From Dictyostelium discoideum (lineage: Eukaryota): a DNA stretch of 64,000 nucleotides. A model generated the notes under the pieces. The model worked only from the letters and a program-made list of their open reading frames with translations. It did no database searches and was not told the DNA's origin. The stretch spans positions 3,584,001 through 3,648,000 of the forward strand of contig CM000151.3 in NCBI GenBank assembly GCA_000004695.1. The letters are read 5' to 3'. Shown here piece after piece: positions 16,001 to 17,962 of the stretch (position 1 is the first letter of the stretch; every line of letters starts with the position of its first letter). The position numbers and the translations under genes are program-made.

Positions 16001-17879
16001 ATTTATAAATTATTTATCAGATTCAAAAATAAATAAATTATATAAAAAGTGTAGTGGTGAAAATGATGGTATCGATAGTTCACCACCAATTTTAAATTGG
16101 TTTAATGCTGTTAAAAAAGTTGGAACAAATAATGATGATCAAATAATATCATTTGATTTTCAAGCAGCTGATAATGAAAGTGGTTTAAAAGATAAACAAT
16201 ATCCAATAGTTTACATTCAAACTATCGATTTACAAGTGATTCAAGGTGTAGCTCAAATTCAAAATAAAACAAAAACAACTGTAAATTATACATGTGAAAT
16301 TGAATTACCAACTGGATTTGGTTACAAATCAGATATTATATTCAGTGTTTATGGATTCATTAATAATGGTGGCTATTATAGTGGTTTTTCAAGTGACGCA
16401 TTAAATAATTTATCATTTAAATATTCAATGACTCAAATTGGAATTTTGAGAAAGATTGAAATCATTAGAGTATCTCAAATCACATCTAGTGGTGGTAAAT
16501 TATGGATTGTCGGAAGGGGTTTAAATTTATCAATTAGAATAAATATAAAATATAATAGAGATTCAAATTTTACACAAATTTCAATACCAACAACAGTTTA
16601 TTCAAGTGCTATTCTAATAGAAGATATTAAACCAACGGATGAACCTTTCATTATACAAGCATTTGATCAATCAAATAACAAAAAGTCCAAAATATTCAAT
16701 GTTTTACCATTGACTTTTAAATTGTCATCTGACGATTCAACTTCAATTGATTCATCATCATCATCATCATCATCTTCTTCTTTAACACCTACACCAACAT
16801 TATTACCCCCATTATCACCAATACCAACGAATAAACCTCAAACATGTTTAGGTGAACCAGTATGTGGTGGATCAAAACAAGGTATTTGTTCATCAAGTGG
16901 ATGTATTTGTTATCCACCTTGGATTGGTAATGATTGTAATTCACAAGTTATAATTATACCACAACCATCAACAAATACATCACAACCATCAACTGAATTA
17001 CCAATTATCGATAACAATAATCAAACATCAAATAGTACAAATTATTTATTCAAATCATTGATTTCAATTGTATCATTAAGAGAATTAGATTTTAATTCGA
17101 ATCAAGTTAATTTATATACATTTGATAAATGGATTTATACACCAATTAATAATATTAAAAGTCAATACTTTACAAGTATTCAAAGTGGTGATCCAAAATC
17201 AACAAATCCATTAACAACTAATATTACTGTAACTTTAGAATGGTTCAATCAAACAAAAATCATTCAATTCGCTAACAGTAATATAACAATGAATCCATCA
17301 AGTATTAAATATACAATTGAAATTACAGAATATAAATTTTTAAATCAATTAAATAGTCTTCAACTTGTAATGTCAGCATTATTCGAATCATCAAATTCCA
17401 AAGATACTTGCTCATTAAAAGAATTTGGAGATACAAGCGATGGTGATAATTCAAACTTCTTTAAAATTCAAATTGATGATCATTCACTTTATGGTAGATT
17501 CATTAAAAGAGCAATCATCGATTCAAAAGTATCTTCAATTGAAAATCAATTATTAGATTCAAAAATGAACTCAATTCAAACATCATCAATATCACAATCA
17601 TTCATTGGTATTACAATACCAAATTATAAACAGTCAATAATTATTGATCCAGACTTTTCAGTATTAGTAGATAGTAAACCAGTATCAAATAATGATAATA
17701 ATTCAATTTGTACATCAAATAAATCAAAACTAACAAGTGCTCAACTCGCTGGTATTATTATTGGTTCCGTTGCTTTTGCTGCTGTAGTTATTGTATCAAT
17801 TGTTTACTTGGTTGTGAAAAACAGAAAATCAGATTTATTCCTAAGAAATGTACAAAGTAAATTACAAAAAATGAACTGA
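13027..17879 (+). CDS. tgr-like type-I transmembrane receptor, copy A (signal peptide, Ig-like exon modules, EGF-like module, TM, short tail). Probable frameshift allele or pseudogene. Exons ~13027..13420, 13535..13822, 13971..14297, 14384..14702, ~14805..15481, ~15660..17879.
   Basis: Signal peptide MKLFEKIQVLILIFVSNYYFIKFSNC. All mapped introns are phase 1 (donors GTAATC 13421, GTATGT 13823, GTAAGT 14298, GTAATT 14703, GTAAGT ~15482; acceptors ..ttag). Two introns are filled with (ATT)n/(AAT)n. The last exon carries WPFGFESGQN, the EGF-like module CLGEPVCGGSKQGICSSSGCICYPPWIGNDC, TM AGIIIGSVAFAAVVIVSIVYLVV and tail KNRKSDLFLRNVQSKLQKMN*. A single extra A at ~14461 (aattcaAtcaatg) shifts the frame relative to the conserved ..LYNSSMYTISF.. 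reading of paralogs B-E. Confidence 0.7.
13843..13953. repeat. (ATT)n microsatellite (~35 units) filling the intron of copy A.
   Basis: Directly visible. Read through by the spurious poly-I ORF 13552..13977. Confidence 0.95.
15497..15600. repeat. (AAT)n microsatellite (~34 units) forming most of the copy A intron at 15482..15659.
   Basis: Directly visible. Confidence 0.95.
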
Positions 17880-17962
17880 TCAGCTTAATAAATTGTAGTT
17901 ACTTTTTTTATAAGAAAGTGGAAAGATGATAAATTTGTTAAAATGTTTAATAGAAAATTAAA
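17880..17962 (+). other. Relic of an alternative (copy-B-type) cytoplasmic-tail coding segment lying 3' of copy A's stop codon.
   Basis: 17917-17960 ataagaaagtggaaagatgataaatttgttaaaatgtttaatagaaaattaaaaaaactc reads IRKWKDDKFVKMFNRKLKKL. This matches copy B's tail ..IIKKWKDDKFVKTFNRKLKKLS* (22161-22230, minus). The preceding TGATCAGCTTAATAAAT matches the post-stop sequence of copies C/D/E. Confidence 0.7.

Follow-up and report, generated by a model that had tools for sequence, protein, structure and literature searches.

Two protein ends stand one behind the other at the 3' end of a surface-protein gene of Dictyostelium discoideum. The gene, here called copy A, is one of five ComC-like paralogs (A-E) in the 64,000-nt stretch of DNA that was analysed (the window, whose positions are used throughout). 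The distal part of its transmembrane segment (TM), its cytoplasmic tail and the stop codon that it uses are of the type seen in copies C, D and E, and close behind that stop lies a relic of the TM end and tail of the type carried by copy B. We consider it probable that the C/D/E-type segment is a patch from interlocus conversion, its 5' end homologous and its 3' join non-homologous, that was placed in front of A's own old B-type tail. The original prediction for this locus had proposed a C/D/E-type TM-tail cassette of ~110 nt before an ancestral B-type tail and had called it a footprint of exchange between paralogs. The cassette gains support from the segment 17784-17892, the B-like GCTGCT at its 5' edge, an intron shared with B and the structure of the orthologous gene in a second, divergent strain, ACTFIW. 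That ortholog (ACTFIW_A) has the same structure with the same relic start, which, together with concerted evolution of the DNA upstream, likewise argues for exchange between paralogs.

Two tail modules at the 3' end of copy A

The open reading frame (ORF) of A ends in ...VVKNRKSDLFLRNVQSKLQKMN, with the tail ..KNRKSDLFLRNVQSKLQKMN and then the TGA codon at 17877-17879; past this point the same frame reads stop, SA, two further stops and IVVTFFIRKWKDDKFVKMFNRKLKKLYLNF. The first base that distinguishes the grafted segment from B is 17786, and homology to C-type sequence runs out at ~17892. Directly 5' of 17784, A has GCTGCT like B, and C, D and E have GCCACT. The claim that A continues past its stop as C, D and E do stood for C, which matches the 17 nt past the stop of A (TGATCAGCTTAATAAAT) at 16 of 17 positions. 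It did not stand for the other two, as E (TGATCAGTTAATTTAAT) matches in part and D (TGATAATTACTTAATCAG, after ...QTIN and the stop) poorly.

Behind this cassette, A 17899-17968 is identical to the TM end and tail of B (...YFIIKKWKDDKFVKTFNRKLKKLS, stop codon at 22161-22163) at ~64 of 70 bases with one indel. The local alignment score is 103, compared with a mean of 22 and a maximum of 42 in 2000 shuffles, and the similarity is collinear at the level of codons, which is not what low-complexity A/T runs would give. The full relic (17893-17969) is 89.5% identical to B. When the B tail was searched against both strands of the whole window, it matched only itself and the A relic, the next best score being 41. 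Two details of the relic had to be corrected: its tail codons begin 30 nt past the stop, at 17910, and not ~35 nt past it, and the relic does not start at IRKW, since it opens earlier with scrambled TM codons from 17893. Three 1-nt indels (deletions) lie in this TM-end remnant. Past the tail the relic frame stays open, running into poly-T, and the homology to B breaks off sharply after 17968; the next 1.7 kb (17969-19701) is low-complexity DNA that has no counterpart in the other strains.

The two tail types match each other position by position, and they also match the tails of family members in five species, so that A appears to carry a tandem pair of diverged TM-end/tail modules. Such a tandem arrangement was seen only in A and in its ACTFIW ortholog, while the other family members examined have a single TM and tail. 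Together with the positional homology of the tail types, this suggests that the tandem state is derived. No relic was detectable behind the stops of C, D and E when the B tail and the A relic were aligned to their 150-nt 3' flanks. Decayed relics at these places, suggested by MAFFT columns and translations, were rejected because the local alignments fell within the dinucleotide-shuffle null.

The same arrangement in a second strain

The neighbouring gene DDB_G0272903 served to retrieve the orthologous loci of ACTFIW (GCA_054859355.1; 92% identity of the neighbour protein) and of ACTFIY (D. cf. discoideum, GCA_054859205.1; 84%). The ACTFIW gene was recognized as the ortholog of A by its hypervariable block, which is 93.9% identical to that of A, compared with ~70% to any paralog. 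It ends in ..VVKNRKSKKFQRNVEKKLQKMN and a stop (TGA TAA), followed by TTGTAGCTATCTATTTTATTATAAGAAAGTGG...AAAAAAACTATCATAA. The cassette-plus-relic structure is therefore that of window A, with an identical relic start (AATTGTAG). This sharing of the structure by both orthologs indicates that the graft would predate the split of the AX4-type and ACTFIW strains. ACTFIY, in which the 3' half of A and all of B are gone, is uninformative on the graft; its A ortholog (locus L003, ~3359-3515) breaks off at a point corresponding to ~16431 of the window and continues in sequence homologous to that of the window from 26878 on.

The ACTFIW relic is complete, reading IIVAIYFIIRKWKDDKFVKMFNGKLKKLS with its own stop (CTATCATAA) in a 30-codon frame. 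It continues into ~150 nt homologous (88.9%) to the flank of the B tail in the window and then into a full-length convergent gene (1393 aa) with a third tail type, T3 (..SFLFFKKRKTKLFLKQFNNK and stop), so that the stops of A and of this convergent neighbour are only 233 bp apart. The module of B-type tail, 3' flank (F_B) and convergent T3 tail is collinear between the window and ACTFIW over 331 nt. In the window, this module is bordered on one side by the uninterrupted TM of B and on the other by a collapsed stump of the convergent gene, in which the TM end and T3 tail, convergent on B, follow almost directly on 113 nt from the middle of the gene. As B is uninterrupted and both A orthologs are interrupted, B can be taken to represent the 'empty site' and the A orthologs the 'filled site'. 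The two filled sites differ in their poly(A) signals: the first AATAAA of ACTFIW comes after the relic's own stop, for which reason the relic there probably sits in the 3' untranslated region (UTR), whereas in the window an AATAAA follows the used stop and precedes the relic.

According to our analysis, the relic appears to behave as non-coding DNA. Its identity between the two strains is 94.8%, similar to that of the intron of A (95.6%) and of coding blocks (94-96%), and therefore gives no sign of special constraint. The original prediction had allowed that the two tails might be alternative 3' ends, the B-type segment being a functional last exon and either tail being chosen by splicing or polyadenylation. 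We regard this as very improbable. It would account for the intact tail codons in both strains, for the window relic being in frame with the ORF and for an acceptor-like TTGTAG just 5' of the relic that is conserved in ACTFIW; one donor/acceptor pair, GTTC(CG/TA)...AATTGTAG, is even in frame in both strains. None of the candidate donors, however, resembles the GTAAGT of the real introns of this gene, and when GT..AG routes were enumerated in the window and ACTFIW, no usable pair giving an in-frame product that keeps the TM was found: the in-frame routes either delete the TM (11-12 hydrophobic residues are left) or need a 42-nt intron. The relation to the ORF is not kept either, the relic being in frame 0 in the window and +2 in ACTFIW, and a terminated open frame is not common to the two strains, as the window relic has its three indels in the TM part and no stop for 24 further codons. 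The position of the AATAAA in the window and the decision of the annotators of a near-identical assembly to end the gene at 17879 also speak against an additional exon.

The graft is bracketed by an 8-nt direct repeat, TGTAGTTA, whose copies lie 111 nt (37 codons) apart and which is the sole direct repeat of at least 8 nt in 17700-18000. A repeat exactly at both edges of the graft, in frame, is what insertion of a mobile or retro-copied 103-nt fragment into the TM of A with duplication of an 8-bp target site would leave. Such an origin is nevertheless scarcely credible. The first copy consists of C/D/E-type TM codons that are present in every donor, and the second of ordinary B-type TM codons (T GCA GCT T); the copies thus derive from different TM codon positions and not from a single-copy target. 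In ACTFIW, the second copy reads TGTAGCTA, so that the match falls from 8/8 to 7/8, and the in-frame spacing is not kept. The insert, derived from a paralog, lacks poly(A), terminal repeats and element-like features, and no other copies of the 103-nt unit with different 8-bp duplications were seen in the window. A retro-copy (cDNA) origin of the patch was rejected on the same ground, there being no poly(A) tract at the junction. Given the 7/8 match in ACTFIW, the repeat is probably coincidental or secondary.

Concerted evolution next to the TM

Identity among the five copies was followed in sliding windows. It is 97-100% over A 15676-15876 and 16800-17780, with a drop to 50-85% over 15900-16800, and it breaks down within the TM codons. 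Over the 350 nt that precede the TM (A 17435-17780), copies are 98.0-99.4% identical within a genome and 95.4-96.2% between genomes, whether or not they are orthologs; the value for ACTFIW_A and its convergent neighbour, for example, is 98.8%. The hypervariable block (A 15900-16780 and the homologous blocks of B-E) reverses this pattern, with ~70% between paralogs and ~94% between orthologs. Paralogs of one genome are thus closer to each other than to their orthologs across the homogenised tract, which we read as the standard signature of ongoing interlocus gene conversion, with the TM and tail lying right at the 3' limit of the conversion tract. As a separate observation, a hypervariable block flanked by homogenised blocks is reminiscent of recognition or variable surface-protein families.

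The graft itself shares some features of gene conversion and departs from it in one. A donor-type patch (17784-17892) is enclosed, without reciprocal change, between the B-like GCTGCT and the B-type relic (17893-17968). At the 3' junction, the donor 3' UTR (+3 to +13 nt past the stop) is joined to TM codon 4 of the recipient, so that there is a net insertion of ~100-110 nt, and the two junctions do not both lie in homology without change of length. Because the 3' junction falls outside homology, the event would be better described as conversion-like with one illegitimate end than as canonical conversion.

Copy B and its relation to copy A

A GTAAGT..AG intron is common to A, B and ACTFIW_A; at its position, C, D and E have uninterrupted coding sequence (..SKHFDEYGPIF..). 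The intron holds an (AAT)n/(ATT)n microsatellite, and its distribution reflects either loss in C/D/E or gain in the A/B lineage. Based on this shared intron, A and B appear to be sister copies.

The original prediction had also called the B-type tail the one actually used by copy B. B does end in that tail, but its use is doubtful, as B contains an in-frame TAA. This single stop in otherwise conserved coding sequence makes B a probable pseudogene, and consequently no intact gene of the window has been shown to use a B-type tail. In the annotation of the near-identical assembly (locus-tag prefix ACTFIT), B is given 1378 aa and A 1408 aa, a difference that fits a spurious intron of ~90 nt (GTATCA...AAAAG) drawn to skip the stop.

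Origin of the tandem tails

We posit that A first ended like B, with the distal half of a B-type TM, the tail KKWKDDKF..KKLS and its stop, the flank F_B and then the convergent gene. Before the split of the AX4-type and ACTFIW strains, a DNA break near TM codons 3-4 of A would have been repaired from a C/D/E-type paralog. The upstream end could have invaded the donor via the ~1-kb stretch that is near-identical in all copies, and copying would then have run through the distal half of the donor TM, its tail, its stop and a few bases of its 3' UTR. Since donor and recipient have no usable homology at that point, the new strand would have been joined non-homologously, with 0-3 nt of microhomology, back onto A at TM codon 4. 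The outcome would be a non-reciprocal patch of ~100-110 nt that gives A a new tail and stop and leaves the old TM end and tail untranslated, directly 3' of that stop. Afterwards, the active cassette may have kept exchanging with C/D/E-type copies, and in the window lineage the relic would have gained its three 1-nt indels and lost its stop and flank in a later rearrangement at ~17968/17969. Such a break-and-copy repair would account for the shortness of the patch, its homologous 5' side, its illegitimate 3' side and the start of the relic three codons past the point where the tail types diverge.

From three features we infer that the B-type end came first: the GTAAGT..AG intron that A, B and ACTFIW_A share and C/D/E lack, the B-like GCTGCT signature of A, and the B-type module, which joins the sister gene of A in the window and A itself in ACTFIW. 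Several points weigh against this account. The direction of change is read from these features, and none of the sampled genomes has an A that ends cleanly in B-type sequence. As the upstream DNA is near-identical in all copies, the patch has no definable 5' edge, and the GCTGCT marker is a single 2-nt signature for which ACTFIW_A has an intermediate GCTACT. Between the two strains, the active cassettes show 9 differences in 96 nt, and they resemble different paralogs: that of the window is E/C-like (KSDLF; TGATCAGCTTAATAAAT), that of ACTFIW D-like (KSKKF; TGATAATT). A single origin would therefore rest mainly on the shared relic boundary and on the one A-specific codon that both cassettes have in common, AAT (Asn). 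Moreover, the window relic is nearer to the ACTFIW relic (4 mismatches) than to the B tail of the window (8), which suggests that two B-type modules were already present in the ancestor.

The DNA downstream of the A stop in ACTFIW can also be read in another way. All of it up to the convergent gene is B-module DNA, as one deletion with two breakpoints would leave it, and the cluster is prone to such rearrangements, as illustrated by the loss in ACTFIY, the stump at 21767-21980 and a segment between A and B that was moved and inverted (segment X, see below). A might thus always have been of the C/D/E type and have lost its 3' flank together with most of a neighbouring B-type paralog on the same strand. 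The relic would then be the stump of that neighbour (its last ~90 nt and flank) abutting the A stop, and not an old tail of A. We consider this fusion by deletion or rearrangement unlikely, as it needs two independent and very specific breakpoints, one 3-17 nt past the A stop and the other in the last ~100 nt of a 4.8-kb gene, 3 codons past the divergence of the tail types. Break-and-copy repair predicts both positions naturally. The fusion also requires an extra gene that has vanished, and A shares the A/B-specific intron and GCTGCT with the B-type gene, as would be expected if A itself were the B-type gene of its module.

Relation to known systems and significance

Interlocus (ectopic) gene conversion and concerted evolution are well known in clustered multigene families, for example in globin and other tandem families. 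The cluster described here shares with them a sharply bounded tract in which paralogs within a genome are closer than orthologs, mosaic identity and a patch with recipient sequence on both sides. Canonical conversion, however, resolves in homology at both ends without change of length, whereas the 3' end of A is a non-homologous join with ~100 nt added and the displaced segment left in tandem. In this respect, A resembles the 'templated insertions' that arise in yeast, Drosophila and mammalian repair from synthesis-dependent strand annealing with failed second-end capture or template switching. These likewise combine one homologous junction with one of little or no microhomology, a copied tract of ~100 nt and duplication of the sequences at the side of the break; the difference is that for A we infer the mechanism from an old, fixed product only.

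Segmental conversion of surface-protein genes with a 3' boundary in the C-terminal coding region or the 3' UTR is known, for example, from the mosaics of the trypanosome variant surface glycoproteins. Common to both systems are a hypervariable ectodomain, a conserved C-terminal block that serves as recombination homology and a boundary at the extreme 3' end of the gene. Unlike the trypanosome genes, A gives no evidence of switching, whether programmed or somatic, nor of expression sites or silent archives, and it would be a germline fossil common to two strains. All five copies share the domain architecture, TM and basic tail of the Dictyostelium ComC-like EGF/supersandwich proteins; this family membership describes the genes and not the tandem-tail finding. 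Literature searches on comC/lagC and on gene conversion in gene families of Dictyostelium yielded nothing on this particular cluster.

The process as such (ectopic conversion, an illegitimate end and a displaced pseudo-exon) is well known in principle, and A is a new example of it that involves no new element or mechanism. Its value lies in being a clean and datable case of interlocus conversion that ends non-homologously, in which the old and the new protein end stand side by side after one step and the graft shows precisely where the homogenised tract of a fast-evolving surface-protein cluster ends on its 3' side. Within the cluster, a hypervariable ectodomain block occurs together with a stalk that evolves in concert and with TM/tail modules of at least three kinds (B-type, C/D/E-type and T3). 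The event also indicates that such a receptor can exchange its cytoplasmic tail, and with it possibly its intracellular coupling, independently of the hypervariable ectodomain. That tail swapping is a recurrent, selected rewiring of these receptors, with intact displaced tails as a reservoir for switching back, seems improbable to us; were it true, the cluster would be a slow germline analogue of cassette systems. For annotation, our results confirm the end of A at 17879; the ORF-like tail downstream should not be called, and B should be flagged as a probable pseudogene.

Gene family, genomic context and further observations

The window has ~22% G+C, and its spacers are rich in homopolymers. 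The ORF at 10233-12260 matches DDB_G0272903 of D. discoideum AX4 with 100% identity, and the assembly GCA_054883475.1 (contig JBTAPE010000001.1) matches window 194-22260 at 99.8%, which places the window on AX4-type D. discoideum chromosome 2, with DDB_G0272903 next to the cluster. The family architecture consists of DUF7035, DUF7034, DUF7949 (EGF-like), ComC_SSD, one C-terminal TM and a short basic tail. In C and E, all four domains were found above the Pfam cut-offs and in this order; the last exon of A holds the domains from a partial DUF7035 onward, and the last ORF of B holds ComC_SSD. The TM and tail of family members were read from the sequence, without a TM predictor: a single C-terminal TM with a short basic cytoplasmic tail, following ..AGIIIGS.AFA..V......Y.[IV][IV]KK..., is present in the copies of the window as well as in 16 homologs of five species. 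A protein search with the last exon of A returned relatives at no more than 49% identity, a value that reflects a gap in the index searched, from which the products of A-E themselves are missing, and not absence from public data, as A-E are called genes in GCA_054883475.1. The coordinates of all features are given in Table 1.

Table 1. Features of the ComC-like cluster discussed in the text (window positions).
Feature	Position	Strand	Remarks
Gene A	13027-17879	+	Annotated span in near-identical GCA_054883475.1
GTAAGT..(AAT)n..AG intron of A	15482-15660	+	Common to A, B (~24398-24530, -) and ACTFIW_A; absent from C, D, E
Last exon of ComC-like paralog A	15661-17879	+	739 codons, no internal stop
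Homogenised tract common to all five paralogs	16800-17783	+	3' edge inside TM codons; 97-100% among window copies; 95-96% to copies of other strains regardless of orthology
8-nt direct repeat TGTAGTTA, copy 1	17783-17790	+	C/D/E-type TM codons, present in every donor
Grafted C/D/E-type segment	17784-17892	+	Distal 11 TM codons, 20-codon cytoplasmic tail (KNRKSDLFLRNVQSKLQKMN), TGA, 13 nt of C-type 3' UTR
TGA stop used by copy A	17877-17879	+	Annotated gene ends here (near-identical assembly)
AATAAA poly(A)-signal hexamer	17887-17892	+	Acquired as part of the C-type 3' UTR piece; the ACTFIW ortholog has none at this position
B-type relic	17893-17968	+	Scrambled TM-end codons 17893-17909, then tail codons IRKWKDDKFVKMFNRKLKK(L) from 17910; no stop
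8-nt direct repeat TGTAGTTA, copy 2	17894-17901	+	5' edge of relic; B codons (GT)T GCA GCT T
Collapsed stump of convergent (sixth) ComC-like gene	21767-21980	+	Third tail type T3, ..VVIVSVSFLFFKKSNSKKL and stop; counterpart of full-length convergent ACTFIW gene
F_B, 3' flank of B-type tail	21981-22160	-	Homologous (88.9%) to DNA after the relic in the ACTFIW A ortholog
Copy B	ends at 22161	-	
Uninterrupted TM and B-type tail of copy B	22161-22290	-	..AAVVVVAASYFIIKKWKDDKFVKTFNRKLKKLS and stop; 'empty-site' state
In-frame TAA in copy B	22935-22937	-	CAA in D and E; within conserved coding sequence
Copy C	29046-31721	-	
Copy D	34473-37148	-	
Copy E	42926-45832	-	

The spacer between A and B is rearranged among the strains (window 17969-21750; ACTFIW locus L002 6233-8858; ACTFIY L003 7176-9732). 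In both other strains, segment X (19702-21750), which holds an annotated 367-aa gene with no Pfam match, is found in inverted orientation between the anchor gene and A, with a copy of window 12274-12545 at each side in ACTFIW. A simple inversion was rejected for this spacer, as no single inversion turns the ACTFIW order into that of the window.

Further members and fragments of the family were noted. An isolated ComC-like fragment lies between D and E (40336-40623, minus strand) with 72.8% identity to E over 320 nt. Outside the window, the D. discoideum gene model ACTFIR_002408 (protein P0025), of a related MRH/ComC_SSD subfamily, has its last ~110 residues tandemly duplicated, TM and tail included; this C-terminal module may be another 3'-end duplication or an artefact of read-through annotation. 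Past the stop of C, at a distance of ~85 nt, there is a long (AAT)n microsatellite (28915-29000), similar to the trinucleotide arrays in the introns of A and B. Finally, tandem flavin amine-oxidase genes are located at 57808-59034 and 60879-62084 (minus strand), and the syntenic ACTFIW site has three in a row.

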